From positions 359-64,358 of the IMG/VR virus record IMGVR_UViG_3300028372_000005: 64,000 nucleotides of DNA; one strand, given 5' to 3'. Under the pieces are notes generated by a model. That model was not told the DNA's origin. It was given only the letters and a program-made list of their open reading frames with translations, and made no database searches. Positions 2 through 57,895 of the stretch are shown here, in pieces (position 1 is the stretch's first letter; each line of letters opens with the position of its first letter). Both the position numbers and the translations under genes were made by a program. Source of the stretch: a virus (lineage: Duplodnaviria; Caudoviricetes).

Positions 2-79
2 GAGATAGCACGCGAGCACAGCGCCGACGTCTCAAGAGAGGATGTTGAGAAGATACTCATGGAGGTAAGTTGTGAGTGA
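2..79 (+). CDS. 3' end of a gene truncated by the window edge; paralog of the downstream Gly-rich repeat protein
   Basis: Frame reads EIAREHSADVSREDVEKILMEVSCE*, matching EIADEHNVDVSEEDIKKVF in 72..461. Confidence 0.6.
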   Translation, partial: EIAREHSADVSREDVEKILMEVSCE

Positions 80-461
80 CACAGGGAGCAACGGCTACGG
101 CCACGGCTACGGCCACGGCACCGGCACCGGAAACGGCCACGGCTACGGCGACGGCAACGGCAGCAGATACGGCTTCGGCTTCGGCGACGGCGACGGCTAC
201 GGCTACGGCTACGGATACGGCCACGGCACCATCATCGCCACGATCGCAGGATACGAGGTTCGCCGACACACGCCGTTCGCCGTCATCGCAGTAGGATGCG
301 AAACCCACACAATCACCCACTGGAGGGAGCACTGGAGAGAAATCGCTGATGAGCACAACGTCGATGTTTCAGAAGAAGACATCAAAAAAGTATTCACTAA
401 AATCAAAGGAGACCAATGTATCACAAGAGCAACTTTGGAAAATTCGCCCCCCGTGGCGTAG
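72..461 (+). CDS. Gly/Tyr-rich (GYG/GDG) low-complexity repeat phage protein
   Basis: GNGYGHGYGHG...GDGDGYGYGYGYGHG N-terminus plus IAVGCETHTITHW C-domain; GGAGG upstream. Confidence 0.7.
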   Translation: MSDTGSNGYGHGYGHGTGTGNGHGYGDGNGSRYGFGFGDGDGYGYGYGYGHGTIIATIAGYEVRRHTPFAVIAVGCETHTITHWREHWREIADEHNVDVSEEDIKKVFTKIKGDQCITRATLENSPPVA

Positions 462-12199: not shown

Positions 12200-12440
12200 G
12201 TATCATCTATGAGGCGTGCAAAAAAAACACTTGACGTCCGGCACGCACATACACTACATAAAGGAAGGTCCCAACATAAGCGTAGTGTAAAAGCGATGTT
12301 TTTCGCATTGTGGGAGTTCGAGAAAATTTTGTTTTGATGTGGGTTTAGAGGTATGTGCTCGCCCCCCCTTCCAGACTCACGATCAAAATCCACGATTAAA
12401 GCGGTTAGTTGACCGAAAAAATGATACTTGAAAAATTTTC
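12200..12440. promoter_or_regulatory. AT-rich divergent intergenic region between the primase and the rightward early genes
   Basis: AT-rich spacer with TTGACG (12231) and TTGACC (12409) -35-like hexamers; -10 boxes weak. Confidence 0.4.
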
Positions 12441-12960
12441 TGACACTGTGGCCGCACTCACCCCATTTTTTGTGGGCGCCTCGTTCCGTGAGGAAGTCCT
12501 CTACCACCACAAAGAGGTGAAATATCACCAGGTGGCCTGGATGAAGGCTCACGAGGAAATGAAAAAATTCGTCAGCGACGACCCCGATGTCGATCTGATT
12601 CCGGCCAATCTCACCCAGCGCATCGTCACCCCGTGCACCTTCCTGGCGATCCACAGCGTCGCCGTCGCGCGCATGCTGGGCGTGCAGATCCGTTGGCGAG
12701 ACGACGACGAACCGGTGGTGGGCAACGCCATGCAGTTCGACAAGATTCTGATCGACCACCTGTTCAGTGGCGCCCCACTCGATGTCGACGAATACGGCGA
12801 GTACCTGTCGGGATACATCCAGATGGCCCGCCGCGCCGAGGACATGGTCAACCACTCGATCGATTTCTGGCACAACTTGTGCCAAGAGCAGGTGATTTTG
12901 ACCTGCGTGCACGGCGTCGACCCCGAGATTTTGGCCGGCGTGGACGGGGAGGCGAATTGA
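12409..12960 (+). CDS. hypothetical protein (start uncertain, possibly 12421)
   Basis: ORF with phage-like codon bias in its 3' part. Confidence 0.6.
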   Translation: MTEKMILEKFSDTVAALTPFFVGASFREEVLYHHKEVKYHQVAWMKAHEEMKKFVSDDPDVDLIPANLTQRIVTPCTFLAIHSVAVARMLGVQIRWRDDDEPVVGNAMQFDKILIDHLFSGAPLDVDEYGEYLSGYIQMARRAEDMVNHSIDFWHNLCQEQVILTCVHGVDPEILAGVDGEAN

Positions 12961-26191: not shown

Positions 26192-26610
26192 GGGGCCGTA
26201 CTGGTTTCGACGTGAGTCCAGAAGCTCCTGCTACACGCCGCGGAGTCTATCCGCGTTACCAATGGACACAAGTCCTAGTTGACGAAACTAACGACGACAA
26301 TGTCATCTATGCTGACTTCAGTCAGTATGGTGGCGCCAAAACGGTCGCAGCAGCAGCATAAGTCGGCCGCGGCGGTTCAAACCCGCCCGCTCCCGCGATG
26401 TTTGCCGGTCGGTTGACCGGGAGTGAACGACAGACCGGATAAGTCTCGAGCGGAGAGCCTCTAAGCCAACCTCGAGAACGAAACAAAGAGACGAGGCACA
26501 CCGAGAGCCCCTGCCTGTGGGGAACCTCTCGGTTACACAATCACAGGACAGCGTGGACACGCAGGATGTGAAAGACATCGCACACGCGGGTTCGACTCCC
26601 GCCGGCTCCA
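26192..26610 (+). ncRNA. ssrA: tmRNA
   Basis: 5' GGGGCCGTACTGGTTTCGAC and 3' GCGGGTTCGACTCCCGCCGGCTCCA; acceptor stem with G3-U; tag ORF 26281-26361 ending AAAA*; CCA not fully encoded. Confidence 0.93.
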
Positions 26611-26848
26611 CTTTTTGTTTTGACGCACAGGGAAGATGCTAGATCAAATAGAACTCAGTGACGGAGAGAGTATAGATACGGCTCGGGCCACATCGAGATG
26701 TCGGTGACCGAGGGCTATCCGGCCGCCGAGTTTTTCGAGCCTGGTGAGACCTACAAAGTGACCTTCGAGAAGGTCAAGTAGATCAATTTAGGCGAGCAGC
26801 AGCGCCACAGTTGTAGCCCGCACCCCTCGGGTCTGCTGCAGGGGACAA

Positions 26849-26922
26849 ACACCCGTAGCTCAGTTGGTCAGAGCGTCGGCTTGTGGTGCCGAAGGTCGTG
26901 GGTTCGATACCCACCAGATACC
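26849..26922 (+). tRNA. degenerate tRNA-His(GTG) with unpaired acceptor stem
   Basis: D-arm TAGCTCAGTTGGTCAGAGC, anticodon arm TCGGC-TTGTGGT-GCCGA, T-arm GTGGG-TTCGATA-CCCAC; acceptor ACACCCG/CAGATAC pairs only 3 of 7. Confidence 0.7.
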
Positions 26923-30179: not shown

Positions 30180-30299
30180 ATGAAGAAGGTGAGCCTTTAT
30201 TTGTCCAGAGAATTCTACGAGCGCCTTTGTCGTGAGGCCGACCAACGCGACATGACCCTGGCAGAATATATCCGAGCCCTTCTCTACGAGCGATTATGA
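30180..30299 (+). CDS. small ribbon-helix-helix (CopG-like) protein, absent from the ORF track
   Basis: MKKVSLYLSREFYERLCREADQRDMTLAEYIRALLYERL*, overlaps the dnaE start. Confidence 0.65.
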   Translation: MKKVSLYLSREFYERLCREADQRDMTLAEYIRALLYERL

Positions 30300-33200: not shown

Positions 33201-34198
33201 CATACCACAATTTCATGGCGAACGGCATTGTCAGTCACAACTCACATTCCACCGGCTACGGGCTTCTTGCCTACTGGACGGCTTACTTCAAGGCGCACTT
33301 CCCGGCCGCCTTCTTAGCCGCCCAGATGCACGTGCGCCGAAACGATTTTGACAAGCTTTCCGACTTCATCCACAACGCACGCGAGATGGGCATCGAGGTC
33401 AAAGACGCCGACGTACGCCACTCGCCGGCGGAGTTCTGGGGCGACGACAGCAGGATCTGGGCGGGCATCAACACCATCAAGGGGTTCAATGACGAGACGG
33501 CTACTGTCATCGCTGATGCCGAGTTCGACAGCCTGATGAGCCTGCTCGAGACCATCGACCTCAAGCCCAGCGAATTGTCGATGCTCGCTGAAGCCGGCGC
33601 GCTCGACGACCTGCTCGGCATCACGTCGATGAGCGAGGCTTGCCAGAAGCGCGCCGACATCGTCGAGCAGGCCAAGGCGCTCATCAAAAATGCGTCGAAG
33701 TATGCGCACACCCACGGGCAGGCGGCGATGTTCTCGCTCAAGTCGGTCGGGATGAGCGTCAGCTGGGGGGTGTCGCCACCCTGGTCTCCCTTCGAACTTC
33801 TCGAGCTTGAGCGCCAACGCCTGGGGCGCTACCGCACCGACCACCCCTCGCGAATTGCGCGCATGAAATACTATAAAAAAACCGCGACCATCGAGATGTG
33901 GCAGCAAAAAGGCGAGCCGCAGCCCGAGGACCACGAATTCAATAAACGAACATTTTGCCTTGTCGTAGTGGTGTTCGATGTGCATAAAATCATCAACTCG
34001 AATGATGAGGAGATGGCGTTTTTGCGCGTCGAGGATGAGACCGGCGAGTACGACGTGACCGTATTTTCGGACCAGTGTGACATCAAGGCCTTCGAGGCCG
34101 CCACCGGCCCGCAACTCATTAAAGTTCAGCCCAACTTCTACAACGGGAAGTGGGGCTTGGTTTTCAGACGTATGACACCCATGGAGGAATTGCTTTGA
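30296..34198 (+). CDS. dnaE: DNA polymerase III alpha subunit (family C) containing an intein
   Basis: PHP domain HLHAHT..S..DG, ITDH, TNDVHY; GPGRGSGGGS, RVSMPDFDIDF, HAGGV, KFDFLGL, YQEQ, YGFNK|SH; C-terminal OB fold MAFLRVEDETG. Confidence 0.95.
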   Translation: MIHLHAHTRFSVSDGLASPDELAQAATGGVLAITDHNTLGGAVKHQIACDRHGVTPVFGVDLDVLDQNRLTLLAQNKTGYKNLIELIRLERRGWDDLDRHSEGIIAMSGDLKGAIPQSVLSEDVEALRAHTSKLRVIYGDRFYLEKINHGLPEQEKVCAFLDKLSRNTGIPAVTTNDVHYLKPEDAVAHAVMICDKLNRSLTPARIEDIRINGAWMTDLECPIAREIAQRCHFRLEVDPDKPYLPAFTNLEGFDTEEEFLWHLARKGLSDRLDGVLDAEYTDRLTHEYQIICDMGFAGYFLIVWDFIKQARIQGIPVGPGRGSGGGSLVSYCLNITDFDPLEYGLLFERFLNPERVSMPDFDIDFCIERRDEIFSHVRRVYGKDNVAGIGTYGENRPRSAWDNTGRIFGVKAARRQRIANQYLPESADSKTLKDILDGDDLEALFKDRPQYRQVFELAERIEGTFRNKGKHAGGVIIADDRLTNYAPIRADDEGVFDHVVEFQMEDAEKIGLVKFDFLGLAELTVLERVSKQVGIDVHDIPLDDAKTFELIGSGNTLGTFQMGSTGFQELMSKMKPWMFSHIIAAVALYRPGPKNAGMLDKFVDRMHGREEVDYLHDALEPILNDTYGVILYQEQIMHIAQQLADYTLGGADILRRGIGKKKRKVIEAEKPKFIDGVEEHGVDREIGEELWDQIETFAEYGFNKCLVGDTQLERAGANQHSGRYLTVKELYDAQSERMDNGRYAPYAQKIRAGRMRILQYCPDGRIRPGNVVKVHENGTREVFEVLLSDGRSVEATANHRFLTDQGYEEVQNIEVGDLLIVRSNKEGYQKQGIDTSRAKGMSYQTSTPGFDAGENNPSYIDGRTRALKEAQERALARSGWGCEFCACEDDGRFEFAHLRPLEHFDFDFVTYNSTDNIAHLCNSCHKKLDYEKGERRPAWSKGKPSTTSEVVSIRCVGEKMTYDVEMADPYHNFMANGIVSHNSHSTGYGLLAYWTAYFKAHFPAAFLAAQMHVRRNDFDKLSDFIHNAREMGIEVKDADVRHSPAEFWGDDSRIWAGINTIKGFNDETATVIADAEFDSLMSLLETIDLKPSELSMLAEAGALDDLLGITSMSEACQKRADIVEQAKALIKNASKYAHTHGQAAMFSLKSVGMSVSWGVSPPWSPFELLELERQRLGRYRTDHPSRIARMKYYKKTATIEMWQQKGEPQPEDHEFNKRTFCLVVVVFDVHKIINSNDEEMAFLRVEDETGEYDVTVFSDQCDIKAFEAATGPQLIKVQPNFYNGKWGLVFRRMTPMEELL
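32408..33241 (+). mobile_element. intein (278 aa) with HNH endonuclease
   Basis: Starts CLVGDT after YGFNK; ATANHRF block B; ends YDVEM..HNFMANGIVSHN before Ser; CEFC..H..N..LCNSCH HNH core. Confidence 0.93.
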
Positions 34199-43382: not shown

Positions 43383-45623
43383 ATGGCGAACGCGCTCAGC
43401 CCAATGTCGCTCGGCCGGACCGAGTATCCAGATCCGTTTCTGGACGTCGCTTCGACGAAACTGCCGAAGTCTCGCCAGAAGCTTCTGGAGATGTGCTTTT
43501 TATTCGCGACCACCCACCCTCAGATTTCCCCGATCGTCAAAAAGCTGGCGAAGTACCCGATCACGCGCGTCATCGTCAACACCGAGAACAGCCAGGATTC
43601 GCTTCGAGAGAAGTGGGAGGATGCGCTCGAAAAAGAGCTCAACATCTACGAGGCGAGCGAGTCGGTGGGGCTCGATTTTTTCGGGTACGGCAACTGCTTT
43701 GTGACCATCCACAAGCCGTTCAAGCGGTTCTATACATGCAAGGCGTGCGAGTACCCGAACCGGGCCGGCACGTTCATGTACCACCTCAAGCGCGATCAGA
43801 TTCACGGCACCTGCCCCAAATGCAAGGCTGAGTCGACTTTTGAGCCGCGCGACGACAACGTCGCAAAGCTCGAGGAAATCTCAGTGGTTCGCCTGCAGCC
43901 TCAGAAGATGCGCATCGAGCGCAACGACCTGACTGGTCAGAAGTGGTTTTTTTACGACCCGTCGCACGCGCTCAAGCGCGCCGTTAAGGGGGCAAAGCCC
44001 AACCGCGACCTCATCGACACGACGCCCTGGCACTATGTCGAAGCAGCGATCAAGGGCAAGCGCATCAAATTCAAGCCCGGCCAGGTGCTCCATCTGTCGG
44101 AGCCATCCCTGTCCGGCCGCGGCATGGCGTGGGGCAACCCCATTATTATGGCCGCTCTCAAGGACGCCTATCTCAACCAGGTATACAAAAAGGCCGACGA
44201 GTCACTCGCCAACGAGCGCTCCATTCCGGCGCGCTTCGTCTTTCCGCAGGCAACAAGCCAGGACCCGCTTCGCACCATCTCACTGGCCAGATTCTCAGGC
44301 TTTTTACAGAATTCGCTCCAGCAGTGGCGACGCGACAAAAACGCGGTCATGCCCGCCCCCTTCCCGGTGGGCGTGGCCGAGGTGGGTGGTGATTCAAACC
44401 GCTTCACCACCGCGCAGCTTCGCGAGCTCGCCATCAAAGAGATTATTGGATCTACCGGCGTCCCCGAGGGCTTTTTGGCCGACGGCATGACCTGGTCGGG
44501 CGGGTCGGTGCAGCTTCGGATGCTCGAGAACATGCTCATGTCGTATCTGCGGGCGCTCAATCGCCTGGTGTGGTTTGTGGTCGACCATACCTCGAGCATT
44601 ATGGGGTGGCCAAAGGTCAAGTGCGAGTACAAGCCGTTCAGGATGGCCGACGACGTCCAGATGCTCCAGATCCTCATCCAGCTCGGCCAGATGAAGGTCG
44701 TCAGCTGGAAAGAGGTGCTCGACCGGATGGATCTGACCTGGGACGACCAGCACAACCAGGTCAAAGACGAGACCGACAAGATGCAGGAAGTCCACATTCA
44801 GGAGCAGATGCTCAACGCTCGCGCGGCGCTGCAGGCCGCCGACATCCAGACCGAGACGCAGATGCGCGGCGAGGCCTGGGGAGCTTTGTCCCAGGAGATG
44901 TTCCAGGACGATAGCGCGATGGTCTCGCACTTCAAAGGCGAAGGCGACTACCGGCAGCTCGACGAGCAGCAGGAGGCCGAGGCCGAGCAAGAGCAGCAGG
45001 CGCAGTCCGAGATGGAGCAGCGCCAGCAGCAGACCGAGATGCGCCTCGACGACGCCAAGGCGCAGAAATACCAGGCCGAGGCCGAACAAAAAGGCGTCCA
45101 CGCCGACATGGCGGCCGACTCGCTCGAGCAAAAAGTACCCCAGGTCGTTCAAGCGTACGTCGACGATCTGATGCAGATGCCGCCCAAAGAGCGTGGCAGT
45201 GAGCTCGAGATGCTCGCCCAGCAATCGCCCAGGCTCGCCCAGGCCGTCGAAGAGAGGCTCGCCGAGATGGAGCAGCGCCACGAAGCGCAGACCGAACGGC
45301 CGATGCAGCGCGAGAAGGAAGAGGGCGCCGAGCAGGCGCAGCAGCAACAACAGGAGGAGATGGAGCCTCAGCCGCAGACGCCGTCCGAGTTCGACACGTA
45401 TTTGAGGAATGAATCGAAAAATGCCAAGGAGTACGCCGAGAAGCTCCAGATGTTGCCTCGAGGCATTCGACTCCCGGTCTTTGATTATGTGCGAAAAACA
45501 GACCCGGAATTTTCGGTTCTGATCACCCAACACTTGGGGCTTGTCGGTGGGCGCGAGGCGCCGTCGACAGGATCGGTCGATATGCGGCCGATGCCCCAAC
45601 AAAAACCACCCCGACGAGGATAA
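43383..45623 (+). CDS. probable portal protein with Zn-finger insertion and Gln-rich C-terminal tail
   Basis: YPDPFLD, DFFGYGNCF, VLHL..P..SG..WGNP, TGVPEGFL..G.TWSGGSVQLRMLEN; CKAC/CPKC; position near the terminase. Confidence 0.7.
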   Translation: MANALSPMSLGRTEYPDPFLDVASTKLPKSRQKLLEMCFLFATTHPQISPIVKKLAKYPITRVIVNTENSQDSLREKWEDALEKELNIYEASESVGLDFFGYGNCFVTIHKPFKRFYTCKACEYPNRAGTFMYHLKRDQIHGTCPKCKAESTFEPRDDNVAKLEEISVVRLQPQKMRIERNDLTGQKWFFYDPSHALKRAVKGAKPNRDLIDTTPWHYVEAAIKGKRIKFKPGQVLHLSEPSLSGRGMAWGNPIIMAALKDAYLNQVYKKADESLANERSIPARFVFPQATSQDPLRTISLARFSGFLQNSLQQWRRDKNAVMPAPFPVGVAEVGGDSNRFTTAQLRELAIKEIIGSTGVPEGFLADGMTWSGGSVQLRMLENMLMSYLRALNRLVWFVVDHTSSIMGWPKVKCEYKPFRMADDVQMLQILIQLGQMKVVSWKEVLDRMDLTWDDQHNQVKDETDKMQEVHIQEQMLNARAALQAADIQTETQMRGEAWGALSQEMFQDDSAMVSHFKGEGDYRQLDEQQEAEAEQEQQAQSEMEQRQQQTEMRLDDAKAQKYQAEAEQKGVHADMAADSLEQKVPQVVQAYVDDLMQMPPKERGSELEMLAQQSPRLAQAVEERLAEMEQRHEAQTERPMQREKEEGAEQAQQQQQEEMEPQPQTPSEFDTYLRNESKNAKEYAEKLQMLPRGIRLPVFDYVRKTDPEFSVLITQHLGLVGGREAPSTGSVDMRPMPQQKPPRRG

Positions 45624-46685: not shown

Positions 46686-46984
46686 TGCAGGGACTACTGA
46701 AGACAGCTGGGCAGGGTGAAGAATCGTTCTGGGATCGCCACGGCGACAAGGTGCTCTACGGGGGCGCCATCCTCGGTGCCGGCGCAGGACTTGGTGCGCT
46801 CGCGCACAACAGTATGAAGAATGAGGCGGTCCACAATGCCAAGAGGAAGCGCAACATCTCCGACCTCGAGGCGGACACGAAGGCGCTCGAGCAAAACACA
46901 TCCAAGCGCACGGACCCTCGGCGTCTTTCGACTCCAGAAGGGTTTGATCAATTCATGGCAAGCGACGAGACATTCATCCTATGA
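46685..46984 (+). CDS. leader-family glycine-zipper protein (MQGLLKTA)
   Basis: FWDRHGDKVLYGGAILGAGAGLGAL. Confidence 0.75.
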   Translation: MQGLLKTAGQGEESFWDRHGDKVLYGGAILGAGAGLGALAHNSMKNEAVHNAKRKRNISDLEADTKALEQNTSKRTDPRRLSTPEGFDQFMASDETFIL

Positions 46985-48459
46985 TTGGCCTCCTCAAAAC
47001 CGCCTCCATCACCAACCCCGCGGGTCTCAACGACGACGTGAAGCTGCAGCCGCACCAGGCGGACGCGGTGCGGCACTCTCGCGGCAAGCCCGGCGTGATT
47101 CTGAATCACGGCCTGGGAAGCGGCAAGACCCTGAGTTCGCTCGCGATCGCCGAGGACCGAGGCGGCCGAACGCTCGCGGTCACCCCCGCCTCGCTCGAGC
47201 AGAACTACAACAAAGAAATCCAGAAATTCGTCAAGCCCGACCGCCACGACTCCTACAAGACGGTCAGCTACGCAAAATTTCGCAAAGACCCGATGAAGTA
47301 CGTGCGCGAGCACAAACCCGACACGCTCATCACCGACGAGATGCATCGGCTTCGAAACCCCACTCAGGCCCAAAAAGCGATCCAGTCGGTCCGGCCGCAC
47401 GTCAAACACCACGTCGGCATGACCGCGTCGCTGGTGAACAACCACCCATCTGAGGTTGCAGGGCTGGTGAACACGGTCTCCGGGCAGCATGTGATGAGTC
47501 AGGAGGATTTCAATCGCAAGCATATCGGCACCAAGAAGAAGGGGCCGGGGCTTTGGGGTTGGCTTAAGGGCATCAAGCCCGGTGAAGAGGAAAGCATCCG
47601 AGACCCCGAGGGTCTCAACAAAGCGCTTGGTCCCTACATCCACCGCTTCTCAGGCGACCCGGAGTACCAGAAGAACCTGCCGAAGGTCGAGATGGAGAAC
47701 GTCGATGTCGAGATGGGCGACAAGCAGCAAGATCTGATGAAGGCGCTCGGCAAGTCCAATCCGAGCATGGACTACAAGCTTCGCAACAACCTGCCGCCGT
47801 CCAAACAAGAGAAGAAAAACCTCAACTCGTTTCTCACGGCGATGCGCCAGACCGCCAACTCTCCGGCGCCCTACGACAAGACCGTCAAAGACCCGATGGA
47901 GCACTCCCCGAAGATGCGCCGGATGGTCGAGGATATGCAGGGCGCGGCCAAAGACGACCCGAACTTTCGGGGGGTGATGTACTCGAACTACCTCGACGGT
48001 GGCATCAACCCGGTCTCGGAGGCGATGAAGGACGATAAGATGCTCCGGTCGGGCGTCTATCAGGGCTCACTCACTCAGAAGAAGCGCAAAGAACTCCTCG
48101 ACCAGTTCGAAAAGGGCGATGTCAACGTGCTCGGACTCAGCCCGGCCGGCGCCGAAGGCATCGATCTCAAGGGCGTGAAGCAGATGCAGGTCATGGAGCC
48201 GGACTTCAACCCCGAGACCACTGAGCAGGCCATGGGGCGTACGGCGCGCTACAAATCCCACCATCATTTGCCGGAAGACGAGCGCAAGGTTAACATCAAA
48301 AAATACCGCTCGGTGTACCCCAAAAAGTGGCACCACCGCTTCGTCGACCGCGACACATCCGTCGACGAGTATATCGATCAGATGTCGAAGGACAAAAAGC
48401 GGCTCAACGACGAATTCTACACTGCGCTCAACGCGTATACGCCTGAGGATGCGACATGA
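46981..48459 (+). CDS. SNF2-like SF2 helicase carrying the leader (MIGLLKTA)
   Basis: LQPHQ, HGLGSGKT, TDEMHRLRN, MTAS, SPAGAEGIDLKG, QAMGRTARY. Confidence 0.88.
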   Translation: MIGLLKTASITNPAGLNDDVKLQPHQADAVRHSRGKPGVILNHGLGSGKTLSSLAIAEDRGGRTLAVTPASLEQNYNKEIQKFVKPDRHDSYKTVSYAKFRKDPMKYVREHKPDTLITDEMHRLRNPTQAQKAIQSVRPHVKHHVGMTASLVNNHPSEVAGLVNTVSGQHVMSQEDFNRKHIGTKKKGPGLWGWLKGIKPGEEESIRDPEGLNKALGPYIHRFSGDPEYQKNLPKVEMENVDVEMGDKQQDLMKALGKSNPSMDYKLRNNLPPSKQEKKNLNSFLTAMRQTANSPAPYDKTVKDPMEHSPKMRRMVEDMQGAAKDDPNFRGVMYSNYLDGGINPVSEAMKDDKMLRSGVYQGSLTQKKRKELLDQFEKGDVNVLGLSPAGAEGIDLKGVKQMQVMEPDFNPETTEQAMGRTARYKSHHHLPEDERKVNIKKYRSVYPKKWHHRFVDRDTSVDEYIDQMSKDKKRLNDEFYTALNAYTPEDAT

Positions 48460-48848
48460 ATGGTTTGATGAAAGTAGCAGAGATCAATAGCGAAAGAACT
48501 TTCGACGATATGAAGAACCAGATGGCCGGCGATGCTGCAATAACTGGCACACGAGGTGCGATTATCGGGGCGTCTTTGGGGCCTATGGGCGCCTTGGGTG
48601 GTGGCGTTCTGGGTGCTGGAGCGGGTGTACTCGGGGGGGCTATGAGAGGTGGTGCTGGAACCTTGATTCATCAAATTGGTGATGGCGGCGATAGTGAAAA
48701 AAGCCTGGCGAGAAGCGCCGGGACTGGCGCCATTGGTGGTGCAGCCTTTGGGGCGGTCGGCGGCGGGCTTCCTGGGGCTGCTATAGGCGCCGGGCTTGGT
48801 GCCGCAGGTGGGGCGCTTGGTAATTACCTTCGAAGTGACGACGAGTAA
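48456..48848 (+). CDS. leader-family glycine-zipper protein, copy 1 (MNGLMKVA)
   Basis: Multiple GxxxG runs; AT-richer codon usage. Confidence 0.75.
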   Translation: MNGLMKVAEINSERTFDDMKNQMAGDAAITGTRGAIIGASLGPMGALGGGVLGAGAGVLGGAMRGGAGTLIHQIGDGGDSEKSLARSAGTGAIGGAAFGAVGGGLPGAAIGAGLGAAGGALGNYLRSDDE

Positions 48849-48880
48849 GATAACTGGTTTGTGAATAAAAAGGATACGGC

Positions 48881-49273
48881 ATGAATGGTTTGATGAAAGT
48901 GGCAGAGATCAATAGCGAAAGAACTTTCGACGATATGAAGAACCAGATGGCCGGCGATGCTGCAATAACTGGCACACGAGGTGCGATTATCGGGGCGTCT
49001 TTGGGGCCTATGGGCGCCTTGGGTGGTGGCGTTCTGGGTGCTGGAGCGGGTGTACTCGGGGGGGCTATGAGAGGTGGTGCTGGAACCTTGATTCATCAAA
49101 TTGGTGATGGCGGCGATAGTGAAAAAAGCCTGGCGAGAAGCGCCGGGACTGGCGCCATTGGTGGTGCAGCCTTTGGGGCGGTCGGCGGCGGGCTTCCTGG
49201 GGCTGCTATAGGCGCCGGGCTTGGTGCCGCAGGTGGGGCGCTTGGTAATTACCTTCGAAGTGACGACGAGTAA
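48881..49273 (+). CDS. leader-family glycine-zipper protein, copy 2 (identical protein)
   Basis: Same 130-aa translation as 48456..48848. Confidence 0.75.
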   Translation: MNGLMKVAEINSERTFDDMKNQMAGDAAITGTRGAIIGASLGPMGALGGGVLGAGAGVLGGAMRGGAGTLIHQIGDGGDSEKSLARSAGTGAIGGAAFGAVGGGLPGAAIGAGLGAAGGALGNYLRSDDE

Positions 49274-49305
49274 GATAACTGGTTTGTGAATAAAAAGGAT
49301 ACGGC

Positions 49306-49659
49306 ATGAATGGTTTGATGAAAGTGGCATCGATGGGTAAGTCCGCAAAGAACAAATGGCAGAAAATGTGGGGAGGGCTCAAGTCTGAGTCAAAATCCCG
49401 CATCATGTCTGGCAGCCGAAATAGTCCCGCCAATGCCCCGTATGGCAACAATATGGTGTTCCCCAAAAATAGAAATAGCACCCCGCCTGAGAGGAAGCGT
49501 GTAGCTGGAAGATCAAGCAAAAAGCCAGCTGGGCACAATAGGCTTTCGGATCATTTAGCTGAGAGAGCAAAATGGAAGAGTATATTAAAGTCTAGAATCA
49601 AATCAGAGCGGAAGTACGAGCGTAACGGCAAGCGAGTAAAGCCCAACCTACCCAAGTAG
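49306..49659 (+). CDS. leader-family highly basic protein (MNGLMKVA)
   Basis: Leader; Lys/Arg-rich; AAGGA RBS. Confidence 0.72.
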   Translation: MNGLMKVASMGKSAKNKWQKMWGGLKSESKSRIMSGSRNSPANAPYGNNMVFPKNRNSTPPERKRVAGRSSKKPAGHNRLSDHLAERAKWKSILKSRIKSERKYERNGKRVKPNLPK

Positions 49660-49727
49660 CAAAAACCTGAAATCCCCGCGATCTTCGATACACTGATGGC
49701 CGACTCTTATTTCTGAGGAGGCCATCG

Positions 49728-52700
49728 GTGTCCCTTCCGTACAACACGCACAAAAATCTGCTCGAGAACCTCGAGGACTACCTTCGAGACACGCTCAACA
49801 TCAAACAGGGCGACCGCGAGTTGGTCGTCAAGCGCATCGATATGCCCTCGACCGAGTCGCACGACGACCTTCGGTCACAAAAGAGTGCCAAAATTCAGGG
49901 CATCTCCTACAAAAAACCCGTGCGCGCGACACTCGAGCTCAAAGTCGACAACAAGACCGAGGACACAGCGACCGTCACGTTGCTCGACCTGCCGCAGGTG
50001 ACCACCCGCGGCACCTACATCGTCGAGGGCAACGAGTACAGCTTCCCGCTCCAAAAGCGCCTGCTTCCGGGCGTGTACACCCGTGAAAAACCAGACGGCA
50101 CGATCGAGGCGTGGATCAACTCGTCGAAGGGTAAAAACCTTCGCCTCCAGCTTCGCGAGCAGGGCGACTTCGTGCTCGATACGGGCAAAAAGATCAACCT
50201 CCTGGCCCTGCTGGTCGGACTTGGCATCGATCGCCAGCGCATCCGGCGGGTGTGGGGCGACGAGGTCTACCGCACCAACAAGGGCGCGCGGGGGGCCGGC
50301 AACGAGCTCGGGGCGCTCAAAAAGCTTTACGACTCTCTGCATTACGACGGCGACGAAGACGTCGACAAAAAAGATGTGCCGACGCTGAGGCGCTGGCTGC
50401 TGAACTACTTCGAGGAGAACAGCGAGCTCGACCCGCAAAACGTCGAGATGACACTCGGCCGGGAAGCCTCGCGGGTGTCGGCCGACCTGTTCATGGTCAT
50501 CACGAAAAAGATCCTCGAGGTCTCCCGCGGCGAGTCCGAAGAGGACAACCGCGAGTCGCTCATCCACAACGCGGTGTTCGACCTGAGCGATTTCGCCATC
50601 GAGCGGCTCAACCACCGCCAGTACCGCTCGAAGATCGCGCGCACCCTGCAACGGAACCTGCAGAAATTCGACAAGGTCAGTGACGTCGTCCAGAAGCGGC
50701 TTTTCCAGGGGCCACTCGACTCGACGTTTACCCAGACATCTCTCGCCAGGATCCCCAAGCAGAACAACCCCATGGACCTGATGGCCTCCTTTTCGGAGAT
50801 CACTTCCATGGGTGAGGGTGGCATCGAGACACGCCACGCGGTCAGCCGCGAGACGCGCGCGGTCGATCCGTCGCATCTGAACTTCATCGACCCGATGCAC
50901 ACCCCCGAGGGGCAAAGCCTGGGGACAAGTCTGCATCTGGCGAAGGGCGTCAAAAAACGCGGGAAGGACCTCGTCAAGAAGGTCTGGGACGTCAAAAAAG
51001 GCGAACAGGTCGAGGTGACTCCGCGCGAGATGTACATGAAGCCGACAGCCTTCGCAGAGTACTACAAGGAGGAAGATGGCCGTCTCGAGCCCGACGATGA
51101 CGGTAAGATCAAGGTCAGCCACAAGGGAGAAATCAGTCGCGTCTCGCCCCACGAGGTGCGCTTTGCGATGCGTCGCACCACCGACATGTTCGGGTACAAC
51201 TCGCTGGGGATGCCGTTTTTGTCACACAACAACGGCACCCGCGGGATGACGGCCTCGAAGATGCAGTCGCAGGCGAAATCGCTCGTCCACCGCGAAGTGC
51301 CCAAAGTCCAGGCCGCCATCGACGAACACTCCGGCGCCACCGTCGAGCAGCTCATGGGGAAGTTCAGCGTCCCCAAAGCCCCGGTCGACGGCAAGGTGGT
51401 CAAGCTCGAGGAGGATAACCTCGTCATCCGGGATGCGGACGGAAAGTCCCACAAGGTCAATTTCCCAAAAAGCTTCTGGCTCAATGACCACAACTTCCAG
51501 GACACCGAAATCACCGTCTCCAAGGGTGATCGGGTGACCAAAGGCCAGGCGCTGGGGGATACGAACTACACCAAAGACGGTGAGCTCGCGCTGGGGACGA
51601 ACCTCAAAACGGCGTATGTGCCATACAAGGGTTTGAACCACGAGGACGGCGTGGTCGTCAGCGAGACGGCGGCCAAAAAACTCACCTCGATGCACGCCTA
51701 TCAGAAAACGGTGCCGGTGGGCGACAACGAGGTCTTGAGCAAAAAGAAGTACCAGGCCTACTTCCCATCGCTGTATACCGCCGATCAGCTCAGCAAGCTC
51801 GACGACGACGGCGTGGTCAAAAAGGGCCAGCGCATCAAAAAGGGTGACCCGCTGGTCGTCAAGATGCGCAAGGTCGAAGAGGATACGGCCTCGAAGCAGC
51901 TCAAAAACATCAGCCGCCTTCTGACCCAGGATTTTCGCGACGGCTCGATCGTCTGGGACAAGGCAACAGAAGGCGTGGTCGAAGAGGTTCATCCCCGAAA
52001 CGACGACGTACTGGTGGTCGTCAAGACCGAAGAGCGGGCGAAAGTCGGCGACAAGCTCGTTGGGCGTCATGGAAACAAAGGCACGATTACCACGATCATC
52101 GACGACGGCGAGATGCCTCGCGGCGAGGACGAAGAGCCCCTCGAGCTCCTACTCAACCCCAACGGGGTCATCAGCCGGATGAACACCGGCCAAATCATGG
52201 AGGTCACCGCCTCGAATATCGCCAACCACGACGGCAAGCCCTACGTCTCCAAGCCCTTTGGGAAGAACCACTCCAAAGAGATTTTGGACGAGCTCAAAGA
52301 GCGGGGCTTAAAAGACCACAGTACGATCTACGACCCCACCGAAGACAAGCACATCGAGGGCGTGCTCGTCGGCGACCACTACACGCTCAAGCTCGAGCAC
52401 AAGGTCGACAAGAAGCTTAGCGCCCGCGGCGCGGGGCCCGGCGAGGCCTATTCGCTCTCTGGCCAGCCCTCCCAGGGCAAGGGTAAGGGCGGCCGGTCCA
52501 TCGGTCTTGGGGAGATGTATGCACTGCTCGCCCACGGCGCCGATGCGAACTTAAAAGAGATGTACACCTTCAAGGGTGACAAATCGATCGAGCACTGGCG
52601 CGCGATTGAAAACGGCACGGCACTACCGAAGCCGAATATGCCGAACTCGAGCAAGAAGTTCGTCTCGATGCTTCGCGGCATGGGCGTGAACCTCGAAGAG

Positions 52701-55700
52701 GACGATAAGGGAGATGTGAAGATGGCGCCGTTTCTGGACCGCCATGTGCGCGACATCTCCAACGGAGAAATCAAAGACGCGACTGCCCTGCGGGCCAAAG
52801 ACCTCAAAGAAGAGAAGGGCGGACTGTTCGACCTGGAGACCACCGGCGGACTCGAGGGCACGAAGTGGTCACACATCGAGCTCGCAGAACCTTTGCCGCA
52901 CCCGACGTTTTTGAAGGCGATCAGGGATGTCACCAAGCTCAGAGGCCACGAGATCGACGATCTGGTCGGCGGCAAGAAGGGTGTCGTCGGCGGCAAGCTC
53001 GTCGCGGCCGACAAGCCGGGCGCAACCACCGGCGGCGAGGGCCTGCGAAAACTGCTGAAGTCCATCGACCCCGACAAGCGCCTCAAAGAGATCAAGGAGA
53101 AGGCGCCCAAAGCGAGCGGCTCCAAGCTCAATAAGATGCACCGCGAGGCGCGCACACTCAAAAACTTCAAAGAGAAGGGTGTGGGTCTCGACGAGATGGT
53201 TGTCGACACCATCCCGGTCATGCCGCCGAAGTTTCGGCCGGTCATCGAGCTGCCCGGCACCGGAGACATCTCGGTCGCCGACGTCAACGAGCACTACCGC
53301 TCGACGATTCTGATGAACAACCAGCTCAAGGCGCTCAAGGGCAAGAAGGGGCTGCAAAAACAGCGCGACAAGGTCCGAAAATCCCTGTTTGATGGCTTCA
53401 GTGGTTCGATGGGGATGTCGATGGGGCTCGTCCAAGACGAAAACGTCAAGGGCCTGGCCGAGACGGTCGCCGGTACGAATCCGAAGTCGGGGTATTTCCA
53501 AAAAAGGCTTTTGAAGCGCCGCCAGGACACCTCCGGCACGGCTGTGGTTGGGCCGGACCCGGACCTCGACATGGATCAGATCGGGGTGCCCGAGCAGATG
53601 GCCTGGAAGATTTTCAAGCCCCACATCAAGCGCGAGCTTCGAGGTCAGGGGCTCACACCCCTGCAGGCCGAACAAGAGATCGAGGACCGCACCAAGCTCG
53701 GCAACGACGCGCTGCAGCGCGCCATGGGCGACCGTCATGTGATGGCGAATCGCGCGCCGACCTTGCACAAATTCTCCATTATGGCGTTCAAGCCCAAGCT
53801 TATCCCGGGCCATGCTGTGAAGCTGCCGGTCGAAGTGCTCGGCGGGTTCAACGCCGACTTCGACGGAGATACGTTCGGCATTCACGTGCCAGCGACCGAG
53901 GAAGCCAACAAGGAAGCCGAAGACCTGCTGCCGTCGAAAAATATGTACCTGCCCGGCCGCAACCGCGAGGAGATGAACCCCGGGTTGAGCCACGAGTACG
54001 TGCTCGGCCTGTTCAAAATCACCCGCAAGGGCGCGGCCAAATCGAACACCTACGACTCTCCTGAAGAGGCGATCAAGGCTGCGGACACCGAGCGCATCGA
54101 CTGGACCGACACCGTGCGAATCAGCGGAATCGGCAAGACCACCGCCGGCCGGTGCAAGGTCATGGCGGCCGTGCCCGAGAAGCTTCGCGACTACAACGCC
54201 CGGCTCGACAACGGCAAAATCAAGGATTTCTTCAAGCGTATCCAGAAAGAGGAGGGGGACGGCGCGTTCAAAGACACGTTGGGCGCCTGGAAGAAGATTG
54301 CCAAAAGCTACGCCTACACCTCCGGCTCGAGCTTTTTGCTCTCGGATATGAAGGATTCGGCGAAGCTGTCACGAGAGCGCGACAAGCTGTACGCCGACGC
54401 CGACCGTCAGGTGCAGAGCGTGCGCGGCGATCGACGCCTGTCCGACGAAGACCGAAAAAAGAAGGTCATCGACCTGTATGGCGAGGTCGACAAATACGTC
54501 AAAGACAAGTCGATCAAAATCAAAGGCAATGACGCCGGCAAATCGAACAACATCTCGGATATGGTCGAGGCCGGTGCGCGCGGAAACCCCGACCAGGTCA
54601 AACAGCTCGTCGGAAGCCTGGGGCTCATGCTCAACCATCGTCAAGAGACGATGGAGGAGCCAGTGCGCGGCAACTACGCCGAAGGCCTGAGCTCGTCGGA
54701 CTATTTTGCGCACCTGTACTCCCAGCGAAAAGGCATGATCGATAAGACCCAGTCGGTCGCGGGGCCGGGGTATCTCGCCAAAGAGCTGACCAACTCGGCG
54801 GCCGACATGAAAGTCACCGAGAAGGACTGCGGGACCAAAGAGGGGCGCTACGAGAAGGTTGATGGCCACCTCAAAGACCGCGTGCTCGCCGACTCGGTCG
54901 GCTCGACGACGCGCGGCACCGTCATCGACGACTCCGTGCTCTCGAGCATCGAGAAGCTCAAAAAGCCGAAGGTGAAGGTGCGCTCAATTCTAACCTGCGA
55001 ATCGACACAGGGAGTGTGCGCGAAGTGCTTTGGCTACGATGAGACGGGCAGCTTCCCTATGGTTGGCAAGAATGTGGGCATCTCGGAGGTGCAGGCCTTG
55101 ACCGAGCGCGCAACGCAGCTTCCCATGAAATCCTTCCACACGGGCGGCGTCGCCACCGCAGAAACTGGCCTCTCCAACGCCTTCGATCGCGCCCAGCAGA
55201 TTCTGCAGATGCCCGAGAATATCAAGGGCAAGGCCGTCCTCGCCGAAGTGAGCGGGCCGGTCCAAAAGATCAAGTCGTCTGGATACGGCGGCAAGGTGGT
55301 GGTCGTGAGCGGCAAAGACCACAAAATCCCCCAGAAGCTCGACGTCAAAGTCAAAATTGGCGAGCGCGTCAAAAAGGGTGATCCGCTGTCGACGGGTGTC
55401 ACTCAGTCCCAGGACGTGCTGCGCCTTCGCGGCATCAATGACGTGCAGACCCAGATGCGCGACGATCTGCACCAGACGTTCTCGTCGGCTGGGGTGAATC
55501 TGTCGAAGAAAAACTACGAAGTCACCGTCAAGTCACTGACCGACAAGGTGCGCGTCCAAGATTCGGGGGACTCAGAAAAGTGGGTGCCCGGCGACTACGC
55601 CAAGCTCCCTCAGGTCAAGGCGTGGAACAATCAAAACCCCACAGGCCGCCAGGTCACCTACAAGAGCGTGCTTCCTGGCGCCCAACAAAATCCCCACAAG

Positions 55701-56321
55701 GGTGACGACTGGGCGCAGCGTATGGCGCTGAGCCGTATCAAGACGACCATCGAGGAGGGCGGGCCGCAGGGGTTTTCAAGCTCCCGCACCTCCGGCTCCC
55801 CGTTCGCCGATCTGGCGCTTGGGCCGGGATCGAATCTTGTCGGTCCGGGCCTTGAGGCGATGGATAAGATGAGCTCGGCGTATTTCAGCATGCTCCCCTG
55901 GCCGACCGAAGCCAGCGCGATCGCGTGCCTGGTCGACATCGAAAAGGCCGCCGGCTTCACCTTCGAGCCCGTCGAGCTCGACGCGATCTTTGAGGCGCGC
56001 ATGAGCGTCGACCAGATGATTGAGAAGATCGCCGAGCGCTCGACGCCCGCAGAAAAAGAGCGCGCGCGTCGGTACTACCAGGAAAACAAAGACGAGATTT
56101 CCCGTAAGCGCAAGCTCCGTCAGCGCAAAATCCAGTCCGGCGTGCAGCGCAAGCGAAAGCGCATCGGCTCGCCCGGCGCCGGCTACCAGTACATCCACAG
56201 TGATGAGGAAGAAGATGGTTCGTCGCAGGGAGGCGTACGCCTGGGCGGCAATCCGAACTTCGACCCCAACGAGAATCCGCGATCGACTGAGAAGAAGCAG
56301 GACATGAAGAGGGTTACATGA
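49728..56321 (+). CDS. single-chain multisubunit-type DNA-directed RNA polymerase (beta-beta' fusion)
   Basis: beta: GDKLVGRHGNKG, NPNGVISRMN, GEM..L.AHGA; beta': GGLFD, HIEL, PVMPP.FRP, NRAPTLH, NADFDGD (53850-53870), SQRKGMID, CAKCFG, TQLPMKSFHTGG; GAGGAGG RBS. Confidence 0.95.
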   Translation: MSLPYNTHKNLLENLEDYLRDTLNIKQGDRELVVKRIDMPSTESHDDLRSQKSAKIQGISYKKPVRATLELKVDNKTEDTATVTLLDLPQVTTRGTYIVEGNEYSFPLQKRLLPGVYTREKPDGTIEAWINSSKGKNLRLQLREQGDFVLDTGKKINLLALLVGLGIDRQRIRRVWGDEVYRTNKGARGAGNELGALKKLYDSLHYDGDEDVDKKDVPTLRRWLLNYFEENSELDPQNVEMTLGREASRVSADLFMVITKKILEVSRGESEEDNRESLIHNAVFDLSDFAIERLNHRQYRSKIARTLQRNLQKFDKVSDVVQKRLFQGPLDSTFTQTSLARIPKQNNPMDLMASFSEITSMGEGGIETRHAVSRETRAVDPSHLNFIDPMHTPEGQSLGTSLHLAKGVKKRGKDLVKKVWDVKKGEQVEVTPREMYMKPTAFAEYYKEEDGRLEPDDDGKIKVSHKGEISRVSPHEVRFAMRRTTDMFGYNSLGMPFLSHNNGTRGMTASKMQSQAKSLVHREVPKVQAAIDEHSGATVEQLMGKFSVPKAPVDGKVVKLEEDNLVIRDADGKSHKVNFPKSFWLNDHNFQDTEITVSKGDRVTKGQALGDTNYTKDGELALGTNLKTAYVPYKGLNHEDGVVVSETAAKKLTSMHAYQKTVPVGDNEVLSKKKYQAYFPSLYTADQLSKLDDDGVVKKGQRIKKGDPLVVKMRKVEEDTASKQLKNISRLLTQDFRDGSIVWDKATEGVVEEVHPRNDDVLVVVKTEERAKVGDKLVGRHGNKGTITTIIDDGEMPRGEDEEPLELLLNPNGVISRMNTGQIMEVTASNIANHDGKPYVSKPFGKNHSKEILDELKERGLKDHSTIYDPTEDKHIEGVLVGDHYTLKLEHKVDKKLSARGAGPGEAYSLSGQPSQGKGKGGRSIGLGEMYALLAHGADANLKEMYTFKGDKSIEHWRAIENGTALPKPNMPNSSKKFVSMLRGMGVNLEEDDKGDVKMAPFLDRHVRDISNGEIKDATALRAKDLKEEKGGLFDLETTGGLEGTKWSHIELAEPLPHPTFLKAIRDVTKLRGHEIDDLVGGKKGVVGGKLVAADKPGATTGGEGLRKLLKSIDPDKRLKEIKEKAPKASGSKLNKMHREARTLKNFKEKGVGLDEMVVDTIPVMPPKFRPVIELPGTGDISVADVNEHYRSTILMNNQLKALKGKKGLQKQRDKVRKSLFDGFSGSMGMSMGLVQDENVKGLAETVAGTNPKSGYFQKRLLKRRQDTSGTAVVGPDPDLDMDQIGVPEQMAWKIFKPHIKRELRGQGLTPLQAEQEIEDRTKLGNDALQRAMGDRHVMANRAPTLHKFSIMAFKPKLIPGHAVKLPVEVLGGFNADFDGDTFGIHVPATEEANKEAEDLLPSKNMYLPGRNREEMNPGLSHEYVLGLFKITRKGAAKSNTYDSPEEAIKAADTERIDWTDTVRISGIGKTTAGRCKVMAAVPEKLRDYNARLDNGKIKDFFKRIQKEEGDGAFKDTLGAWKKIAKSYAYTSGSSFLLSDMKDSAKLSRERDKLYADADRQVQSVRGDRRLSDEDRKKKVIDLYGEVDKYVKDKSIKIKGNDAGKSNNISDMVEAGARGNPDQVKQLVGSLGLMLNHRQETMEEPVRGNYAEGLSSSDYFAHLYSQRKGMIDKTQSVAGPGYLAKELTNSAADMKVTEKDCGTKEGRYEKVDGHLKDRVLADSVGSTTRGTVIDDSVLSSIEKLKKPKVKVRSILTCESTQGVCAKCFGYDETGSFPMVGKNVGISEVQALTERATQLPMKSFHTGGVATAETGLSNAFDRAQQILQMPENIKGKAVLAEVSGPVQKIKSSGYGGKVVVVSGKDHKIPQKLDVKVKIGERVKKGDPLSTGVTQSQDVLRLRGINDVQTQMRDDLHQTFSSAGVNLSKKNYEVTVKSLTDKVRVQDSGDSEKWVPGDYAKLPQVKAWNNQNPTGRQVTYKSVLPGAQQNPHKGDDWAQRMALSRIKTTIEEGGPQGFSSSRTSGSPFADLALGPGSNLVGPGLEAMDKMSSAYFSMLPWPTEASAIACLVDIEKAAGFTFEPVELDAIFEARMSVDQMIEKIAERSTPAEKERARRYYQENKDEISRKRKLRQRKIQSGVQRKRKRIGSPGAGYQYIHSDEEEDGSSQGGVRLGGNPNFDPNENPRSTEKKQDMKRVT

Positions 56322-57895
56322 GCGCAGCCGAAGAGTATCCGGCCGCCTATCTATCCGAGTGGGCCGCCAACGGCATCAACGTCGCCCCGCGCGAGAAGAT
56401 GACCTACAACGGCCGTCGCTGGATGCCGGCGATGTTCGACACCCAGGCCCAGCGGCGCGTCTGCAAGATGAGTCGCCAGGTGGGAAAGTCGACCTTCGGC
56501 TCGGCGTTCTCGCTGATGCTTATGGCAAACCATCGGCGCTTCAACGTCCTGTACGCCGCCCCCGAGCAAGACCAGACCTCCAAATATAGCTGGGATAAAG
56601 TCGCCCCAATGATCGCCGGCTCGCCTGGGTTCGACAACATCATCGGGGTGCCCAACAACGTCTTCGAGAAGAAGTTCGCCAACACCGAGTCGAAGTACTA
56701 CCTGAAGTGGGCCAAGCACAACCCGGACGCCTGTCGTGGTCTGACCGTCGACATGGTCCACTACGACGAGGTCCAGGACCAGACGCTCGACGAGATCGAG
56801 CCGGTCATCAACGAGGCGATGTTCACCTCGGAGCACGAGAAGCTGTTGTACACCGGCACGCCGAAGTCACTGGTCAATCCGATCCACGGACTGTGGAAAA
56901 AGAGCGACCAGCGAGAATGGGTCATCACCTGTGGTGGGTGCTCGAAGTATGTGAATCTGGGCATCAAAAACATCGGAAAGCACGGGCCGATCTGTCACCA
57001 CTGCGGCAAGATTCTGGACGTCGACAACGGTCAGTGGATTCGTCACAACCGCGCCTCCAAGATGGCCGGATTCCACGTCCATCAGATGCACTGCAAAATC
57101 TCGTACATGAAGCTCAGGGGTGGCATCTGGGTGCCCAACCAGAACAAGTGGGACAGCATCCTCAAGAAGTTCGAGGACTATCCCCGGCCGAAATTCTTAA
57201 ATGAGGTCTTAGGCATGTCGGCCGACACCGCCGATGTTCCGATCACAGAAGCCATGCTCCGGCGCATCTGTGGGGCGCACAAAATTGTCGAGGACCCGCC
57301 GTCGTCGTACATGCGCGCGCCGATCTATGCTGGCATCGACTGGGGGCGGGGGCCTGCAGCGACCGTCTTGACGCTCGGGCAGTTCTACAAGGGGAAGTTT
57401 CGTTTTCTGTATCTGAAAAAATTCAAGGGTGACGCGGCCCACCCCCAGTACTGCATCCCGAAGATTTTGCAGACACTCAAGACCTGGAGGGTCGCCAGGG
57501 TCCACTGCGACCACGGCATGGGATTTGGCATGAACAGCCAGATCGCCGAGGGGTACGGGGATAATCGGGTCACGGCCTGCTACTACTCGAGCTCGGCGAA
57601 GTCGGCCGACTACACCTGGAAGACCAAGAACAAAGAGGTGCCGTGTCTGACGCTGAACAAATCCAACGCAGTGTCGGCCTTCATCGAGCGCATCCGCAAG
57701 CGCCACATCGTCATGCCCCGCCAGGAAGAGTTCTTTGATGAGTTCTCAGAAGACTTTTTGAACGTGCGCGCTGAAGTCGACCGCCACGACAACCTCAGGT
57801 ACTTGAAGGCCGAAGGCGAGAACGACGACGCGTTCCACGCCGCACTGTACTGCTATGTGATCGCGAACTTCGATACGGCCGGCTCTAAAATTTGA
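56318..57895 (+). CDS. terminase large subunit
   Basis: KMSRQVGKST Walker A, HYDEVQD Walker B, TGTP, CGGC..CHHC, GIDWG and DDAFHA nuclease motifs. Confidence 0.88.
   Translation: MSAAEEYPAAYLSEWAANGINVAPREKMTYNGRRWMPAMFDTQAQRRVCKMSRQVGKSTFGSAFSLMLMANHRRFNVLYAAPEQDQTSKYSWDKVAPMIAGSPGFDNIIGVPNNVFEKKFANTESKYYLKWAKHNPDACRGLTVDMVHYDEVQDQTLDEIEPVINEAMFTSEHEKLLYTGTPKSLVNPIHGLWKKSDQREWVITCGGCSKYVNLGIKNIGKHGPICHHCGKILDVDNGQWIRHNRASKMAGFHVHQMHCKISYMKLRGGIWVPNQNKWDSILKKFEDYPRPKFLNEVLGMSADTADVPITEAMLRRICGAHKIVEDPPSSYMRAPIYAGIDWGRGPAATVLTLGQFYKGKFRFLYLKKFKGDAAHPQYCIPKILQTLKTWRVARVHCDHGMGFGMNSQIAEGYGDNRVTACYYSSSAKSADYTWKTKNKEVPCLTLNKSNAVSAFIERIRKRHIVMPRQEEFFDEFSEDFLNVRAEVDRHDNLRYLKAEGENDDAFHAALYCYVIANFDTAGSKI

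Follow-up and report, generated by a model that had tools for sequence, protein, structure and literature searches.

The closest described relatives of the protein analyzed here are the RNA polymerases (RNAPs) of Salmonella phage Arash (gp206 and gp216) and of the Vibrio phages D69, D148 and D181, to which it is 28-32% identical across 65-83% of the query. According to the accessible sections of the Arash report, Gp206 gave the top spectral count in purified particles, above that of the major capsid protein, and the particles also held Gp216, the helicase Gp217 and the sigma factor Gp10 (PMC10585845). A virion form of the enzyme and an associated Swi2/Snf2 helicase have been described, in the text portions available, for the RNAPs of the phiKZ/AR9 type (PMC7824862, PMC7598289); a group of RNAP-encoding Caudovirales termed mReC, comprising 97 contigs, was compiled from IMG/VR by Weinheimer and Aylward in 2020, and its capsid proteins matched PF07068 (T4 Gp23) according to the accessible part of that survey (PMC7481178). 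The present analysis concerns a single open reading frame (ORF) at positions 49728 to 56321 of the window, i.e. the whole 64,000-nucleotide stretch of DNA from an uncultured lake phage (Duplodnaviria; Caudoviricetes) that corresponds to positions 359 to 64,358 of the IMG/VR record IMGVR_UViG_3300028372_000005; the record comprises 64,358 bases and is estimated to be 35% complete, the genome being of about 180 kb. The ORF is genuine and encodes a single-chain polymerase from a large phage clade of which little has been described; its new part is a lineage-specific fusion of a C-terminal tail. As a whole, the data are best explained by a single-chain phage RNAP core that would be sigma-programmed, insensitive to rifampicin, made late and probably borne by the virion, with the fused tail at its end; we assign this explanation a probability of roughly 0.7.

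Within the 2197 stop-free codons on the plus strand, seven RNAP domains recognized by Pfam followed one another in the canonical order from beta to beta': Rpb2_3 (residues 344-405), Rpb2_6 (611-919, expect value (E) 3e-55) and Rpb2_7 (921-990), then Rpb1_1 (1119-1206), Rpb1_2 (1317-1401), Rpb1_4 (1573-1641) and Rpb1_5 (1653-1948); Rpb2_7 remained below the Pfam cut-off (19.7 versus 32.1 bits), the remaining domains were above it. The fold of residues 930-1330, predicted from an alignment of 35 rows (predicted local distance difference test, pLDDT, 82; predicted template modelling score, pTM, 0.69), matched E. coli beta' 16..413 from residue 993 onwards (Z 23-24, 305-327 residues, root mean square deviation 7-8 Å). 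Since the fold aligns from residue 993, beta' begins a few residues past the end of Rpb2_7 (990) with no linker in between. Both the single 2197-residue frame with beta motifs ahead of beta' motifs and a junction near nucleotide 52700 had been proposed in a first-pass annotation made from the letters of the window; the translation and the Pfam domain order bear out the former, the Pfam domain ends and the fold alignment the latter (residue ~990-993). The features of the gene are the following:

49716..49722, plus strand: Shine-Dalgarno-like GAGGAGG, 5 nucleotides ahead of the GTG start
49728..56321, plus strand: whole polymerase ORF, 2197 residues, GTG start; beta module, beta' module and fused tail
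49728..52697, plus strand: beta module (residues 1-~990) with Rpb2_3, Rpb2_6 and Rpb2_7
50727..50825, plus strand: segment of beta equivalent to the rifampicin pocket (residues 334-366), ungapped against Thermus aquaticus beta (1hqm_C, 1ynj_C)
51885..51941, plus strand: flap-tip-equivalent segment (residues 720-738), length kept in the alignment to 7l7b_C
52698..55859, plus strand: beta' module (residues ~991-2044), from Pfam domains, alignments and fold
52833..52856, plus strand: eight residues (1036-1043) at the place where bacterial beta' has its N-terminal Zn ribbon of ~40 residues
53280..53411, plus strand: clamp coiled-coil helices (residues 1185-1203 and 1210-1228), from alignment and fold
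53850..53870, plus strand: NADFDGD catalytic loop (residues 1375-1381)
54693..54803, plus strand: bridge-helix region (about residues 1656-1692), from alignment to bacterial beta'
54828..55028, plus strand: second Zn site (Cys1701, Cys1757, Cys1764, Cys1767)
55074..55163, plus strand: trigger-loop region (about residues 1783-1812), from alignment to bacterial beta'
55860..56318, plus strand: fused tail (residues 2045-2197), comprising a helical bundle, an Arg/Lys-rich helical hairpin, a beta-hairpin and a disordered end

As the source of the ORF is a metagenomic contig, its length might reflect an assembly or sequencing artefact that fused two or three genes. The integrity of the frame was therefore examined in Logan contigs (assembled, not raw reads; depth 2-8) from four other public runs, which are lake water and salt lake metagenomes by label and none of which is marked as the source of the record. 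These contigs contained no insertion or deletion relative to the ORF: The join between beta and beta' was bridged gap-free in X3 (49700-53435), X4 (51695-52933) and X5 (52434-53036), the join between core and tail (nucleotide 55860) in X3 (55799-56400) and X9 (55795-56009). Across the runs, 15 variant sites were located within the ORF (nine synonymous, six missense, no stops), and the gene is demonstrably under purifying selection. Four gene calls on separate JGI, ENA and Logan contigs were each 2197 residues long and nearly identical, and the first residue of the closest homologue (P0002, 75% identity) coincided with the polymerase start; a stop or frameshift at the junction was found neither in the contigs of the four other runs nor in the four gene calls. 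Besides the depth of about 2-8 in the compared runs, a 34-nucleotide opposite-strand joint at 54047/56400 in one X3 contig would be in line with an artefact, but this joint is taken for a chance match; in view of the missing indels, the two bridged junctions, the four concordant calls and a beta-beta' join common to all of the 80 best loci of relatives, an artificial fusion is very improbable. The polymerase ORF is genuine and intact.

Relatives of the polymerase are encoded by at least 554 of 579 candidate stretches in IMG/VR; all locus counts given here refer to the best 80 of these, many of which are cut by contig ends. A single ORF extended across the whole match in 78 of the 80 loci, and in the other two in-frame TGA codons were the sole interruption (four in L076 at 10178-12862, one in L077 at 12194-12196), which is why both are probably TGA-recoded phages. 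A portal homologue was present upstream in 61 loci and a terminase gene in the fetched downstream flank in 50. Among 119 other listed clusters, 85 contained a beta domain (PF00562) together with the C-terminal beta' domain (PF04998), 83 of these with at least 1900 residues and on contigs up to 210 kb, and the other 34 were beta plus beta'N forms of 1439-2106 residues; many homologues carry inteins or homing-endonuclease domains and reach 2400-3367 residues. The single chain is thus the rule across hundreds of viral contigs, and the fusion is not an isolated oddity.

The phylogenetic comparison with bacterial RpoB/RpoC and phage RNAPs that had been proposed as a check was based on an unrooted tree (IQ-TREE, LG+G4, quick search; 40 rows, 1996 columns), in which many rows failed the composition test and the row of Rhizobium phage TM30 was beta'-only with a long branch. 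Sixteen bacteria from 10 phyla were placed on one side of a fully supported branch (Shimodaira-Hasegawa-like approximate likelihood ratio test, SH-aLRT, 100); the other side (SH-aLRT 100) comprised 21 fused phage proteins together with Arash and Vibrio D69, whose two-chain enzymes were entered as concatenated sequences. The polymerase belongs to a phage-only clade in which the single chain is the norm. The split pair of Arash and D69 fell within a basal polytomy among the fused lineages, so that either form may be the ancestral one. The same topology argues against a cellular rpoBC stretch that was mis-binned as viral, as the 27-32% identity to bacterial rpoB-rpoC could suggest: The polymerase is positioned outside all 16 bacteria, its gene neighbours include portal, terminase and phage replication genes, and the best 80 of 598 matches in GTDB genomes were all ordinary cellular rpoB-rpoC loci of at most 32% identity, with no prophage copy among them. 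The probability of mis-binning is accordingly negligible.

The alignments to bacterial beta' confirmed that the second Zn site, the NADFDGD loop, the bridge helix and the trigger loop are kept; the four cysteines of the Zn site (1701, 1757, 1764 and 1767) were near-invariant across 19 family members. The first-pass annotation had also reported the loss of the beta' N-terminal Zn ribbon. Indeed, eight residues (1036-1043) stand between two collinear anchors where the bacterial beta' 8x6f_D has 40 (49-88), and a cysteine at this position was present neither in the polymerase nor in any of 34 aligned relatives, the surrounding motif being conserved; the string quoted for the loss (GGLFDLETTGG running directly into WSHIEL), however, skips the residues LEGTK before WSHIEL. 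Similarly, the attribute "streamlined" is justified in so far as the two modules are shorter than any listed bacterial pair (~990 residues versus 1070-1383 for all listed beta chains, ~1053 versus 1161-1604 for all listed beta' chains), but the reduction is only moderate; several lineage-specific insertions are absent. The clamp coiled coil, which is the main sigma-docking element of bacterial enzymes, is among the retained elements; segment 720-738 is read here as the flap tip, with the role that we assume for it in bacterial enzymes. In the rifampicin-pocket segment, five classic resistance positions (presumably E. coli 513, 516, 526, 529 and 531) differ and are occupied by R, K, S, E and T in the phage polymerase; because of these differing pocket residues the enzyme is predicted to be rifampicin-insensitive.

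Concerning the partner subunits, alpha (PF01000) was detected in none of seven genomes (Arash, D69 and five fused-type genomes of 93-100% completeness) nor in the own record, the control for this search being positive in all 14 named genomes. Due to the absence of alpha from the relatives searched, the covalent beta-beta' join would stand in for the alpha dimer as assembly platform. Sigma70_r2 and Sigma70_r4 were likewise missing from the own record, which is itself about 35% of the genome. Among the seven complete or near-complete relatives, Sigma70_r2 was above cut-off in four (Arash, D69, G003 and G005); Sigma70_r4 backed the assignment in G003 and G005, was weak in G002, and nothing was found in G001 and G004. 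The statement that neither an alpha nor a sigma gene is seen in the window therefore holds for the domain searches but says little on sigma: Because about 35% of the genome is covered and four of the seven relatives encode a sigma factor, its absence from the window does not make the polymerase sigma-independent. A phage sigma factor is common in the polymerase family; universality is not demonstrable.

The position of the gene relative to the head genes is defined by three neighbours:

43383..45623, plus strand: portal homologue, 746 residues (BLASTP E 3e-59 to the Arash portal)
46981..48459, plus strand: ATPase of the SNF2 family that starts with the leader-like sequence MIGLLKTA; its Arash orthologue is gp217 (33% identity, E 2e-81)
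56318..57895, plus strand: terminase large subunit, TerL (PHROG 675, E 4e-64)

The TGA of the polymerase (56319-56321) overlaps the ATG of TerL (56318), in agreement with the overlap described initially. Scanning the vicinity of the polymerase gene for promoters and terminators gave counts at shuffle level (5 versus 3.3; 25 versus 17). The location "between portal and terminase" is correct as to gene order but applies loosely, since the portal homologue is situated 4.1 kb upstream and the SNF2 gene and eight small ORFs intervene. The portal homologue had zero Pfam or PHROG matches, and neither p388 nor any of the window's small ORFs matched a PHROG; residues ~119-148 of the portal homologue contain a CxxC...CxxC pair aligned with the same pattern of the Arash portal, which may represent a Zn-ribbon insertion in the portal protein. 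Further genes of the window encode a class II ribonucleotide reductase, a primase-helicase and PolIII-alpha (30296-34198, 1300 residues), the latter with an intein (Intein_splicing, residues 752-982). A full-length transfer-messenger RNA gene was identified at 26192-26613 (RF00023, 100 bits, E 7e-38; the ARAGORN tag peptide ends with AAAA), followed after 240 nucleotides by a match resembling transfer RNA at 26855-26915 (RF00005, 49.7 bits; no ARAGORN call).

Late synthesis and packaging of the polymerase would fit its position, because the gene lies in the head-gene block. By analogy with the Arash particles, the polymerase is rather probably carried in the virion, and the proposal of a virion-associated polymerase that works with the SNF2 ATPase is plausible. 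Alternatively, the enzyme might be produced during infection for middle or late transcription and left unpackaged, the head-gene position being historical. The metabolic enzymes among the proteins of the Arash preparation are compatible with such a non-virion enzyme (PMC10585845, accessible sections), as is the lack, in the polymerase, of the leader-like motif found on the SNF2 protein and on six small ORFs. On the other hand, the Gp206 spectra exceed those of the major capsid protein, 61 of the 80 loci preserve the vicinity of portal and polymerase genes, and a phage whose lone RNAP gene is in the late module would need the host enzyme for its early genes; a purely intracellular polymerase is thus regarded as rather unlikely.

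The aforementioned leader, M-x-G-L-[ML]-K-[VIL]-A, heads the ORFs starting at 23482, 27344, 40130, 48456, 48881 and 49306; outside the window, it was found on small ORFs of the loci L007, L008 and L011 only (11 matches versus 0 in reversed sequences). This leader could be a signal for targeting or processing, presumably comparable to the capsid-targeting leaders of T4 internal proteins. Three tandem units at 48446-49659, spaced by 425 nucleotides, are identical in their first 39 nucleotides (ribosome-binding site plus leader); units 1 and 2 encode 100% identical glycine-zipper proteins of 130 residues, unit 3 a different protein of 117 residues with the same leader.

A point missed in the first-pass annotation concerns the end of the ORF: The polymerase homologues terminate near residue 2044, and the last ~150 residues correspond to a protein that is separate in the nearest relatives: In the five nearest loci (L007-L011), the equivalent of residues 2045-2197 is a separate ORF, each time between the polymerase and terminase genes (183 residues in L007; 168 in L010, immediately ahead of terminase; 104 in L008 and L011), and no tail homologue was found in the other 75 of the best 80 loci. 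When 1.84 billion representative sequences were searched exhaustively by profile, 88 clusters matched at E<=1e-3 (60 at E<=1e-10), nearly all of them free-standing proteins of 80-350 residues; the two longest (630 and 1237 residues) matched by short repeated stretches only, and none of the 88 clusters was an RNAP-sized protein with a match to the whole profile. Starting from the free small protein of L007, a word-based search for homologues retrieved only two proteins. The tail fusion hence seems to be confined to this phage lineage. Owing to this fusion, the polymerase stop abuts the terminase gene; a deletion reaching from the polymerase stop across the intervening genes into the beginning of the small gene would have joined the small basic protein to the polymerase C-terminus and brought the terminase gene next to it.

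The tail model (pLDDT 83, pTM 0.42) consisted of three short helices, an Arg- and Lys-rich hairpin of helices (18 such residues out of 57), a beta-hairpin and a disordered terminus. Neither Pfam, above its cut-off, nor PHROG returned a match for the tail, and Foldseek gave no match to the model at E<=0.001. An acyl-carrier-protein fold was considered for its first ~55 residues on account of repeated matches and was rejected, these being weak (template modelling score 0.44-0.51 on the target, probability <=0.28). The conserved core of the small-protein family opens with a motif resembling the leader described above. Our best guess for the tail is a nucleic-acid- or particle-binding tether.

Alternatively, the fusion could be a neutral deletion accident, the 150 residues being dispensable, removed by proteolysis or made separately from an internal ATG at 55860. 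The tail was seen fused in this lineage only, the initial ~35 residues present in the free homologues are missing from it, the complex prediction for RNAP residues 1200-2044 plus tail (run without controls) gave no interpretable result (score 0.00), and GAGG is located 2 nucleotides ahead of ATG 55860. The spacing of this GAGG is, however, poor for initiation; furthermore, the tail retains an intact core motif of the small-protein family, the sole tail variant across the runs is a conservative D-to-E exchange, and the full frame is present in all four cluster members, so that a neutral accident is a possible but somewhat doubtful explanation. Considerably more speculative is the idea that the polymerase captured a small basic protein to functional effect: If motif and hairpin target the particle or the DNA, the fusion would represent a new way to load a cellular-type RNAP onto the packaged genome for co-injection. 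Should this improbable case apply, the free small protein would be a polymerase partner in the relatives by Rosetta-stone logic. The tail fusion also offers a handle on the small-protein family with its at least 60 clusters at E<=1e-10.

Taken together, the preferred explanation would comprise the following steps: The catalytic core of a bacterial-type RNAP is contained in one chain, with ~990 residues of beta leading directly into ~1050 of beta'; its promoters would be recognized by a phage sigma-70-type factor encoded outside the window; it would be made late alongside the head genes, its translation being coupled to that of terminase; and, following the Arash proteomics, it would probably be packaged with the SNF2 ATPase and start transcription in the next host. 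Several points weigh against this explanation. The Arash preparation comprised 116 proteins including ribonucleotide reductases, and carry-over is allowed for by the authors in the accessible text (PMC10585845). No RNA runs containing the polymerase locus were listed. The gap between polymerase and terminase genes amounts to 0.9-8 kb in the relatives, mostly 5-8 kb, which renders the terminase coupling peculiar to this phage. Two-thirds of the phage's own genome are unseen, and sigma was unrecognized in three of the five near-complete fused-type genomes (one with a weak Sigma70_r4). Finally, the anchors that define the Zn-ribbon replacement are, though collinear, individually weak or non-significant matches to 8x6f_D, and the rifampicin prediction is based on one alignment plus the residue roles assumed for bacterial beta.

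In lakes, oceans and guts, the polymerase family has very many members. With near-full bacterial catalytic architecture in a chain of ~2045 residues, presumably no need for alpha and no first Zn ribbon, the enzyme is a natural minimal version of the cellular type, useful for structural work and for probing the actual contribution of alpha, omega and the Zn ribbon, and possibly represents a one-gene, sigma-programmable polymerase.

With regard to known systems, the joining of beta and beta' in one ORF is shared with cellular fusions such as that of Wolbachia (locus L152, 2853 residues), in which the beta C-terminus is likewise connected to the beta' N-terminus; because it is nested inside Pseudomonadota in the tree, the Wolbachia fusion is independent. 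A natural beta-beta' fusion also occurs in Helicobacter. The cellular fusions are about 650 residues longer than the phage polymerase and retain alpha and omega.

Among the phage enzymes, the phiKZ/AR9 type is similar in being a phage-encoded two-barrel enzyme without alpha but consists of four to five polypeptides, operates without sigma and is very divergent, whereas the present protein is fused and Pfam-recognizable (E 3e-55); the phiKZ-type splitting of beta and beta' is not seen in its single frame, and of the 65 tblastn hits, the 30 whose records were listed included no RNAP of this type. Both barrels are united in one polypeptide, as here, in crAss gp66, YonO and P23-45 gp96/gp64, and, according to the accessible text, some of these single-chain two-barrel phage RNAPs are virion-borne, one being fused to the tape measure (PMC10770324). 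This type is too divergent for COG/Pfam models in the available part of the mReC survey (PMC7481178); the polymerase described here, in contrast, keeps a near-full bacterial domain set. The selection rules for mReC would admit a fused protein, although the accessible text treats the enzyme as two subunits and at no point mentions a single gene (PMC7481178). The mReC capsid marker PF07068 was present in Rhizobium phage TM30 and in none of four genomes of the polymerase family. Chaban et al. (2024) refer to "derivatives with fused DPBB domains" (double-psi beta-barrel), which are unnamed in the text as far as accessible; a published description of a fully fused, Pfam-recognizable beta-beta' phage polymerase was not found in the accessible literature, the supplements of two surveys lying outside the search.

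The greatest similarity exists to Arash and D69, which belong to the same clade of the tree, possess the upstream portal, a beta joined to beta', no detectable alpha and genomes of ~180-187 kb; Arash also shares the SNF2 helicase partner, gp217 being located directly after the beta'C gene there. In these phages, however, beta' is cut past its catalytic half (a chain of 1525 residues plus a beta'C gene of ~606 residues) and the terminase gene is not adjacent, whereas in the polymerase of the window beta'C continues in the same frame, as in the fully fused majority form, and is followed by the tail, no other fused copy of which was found.

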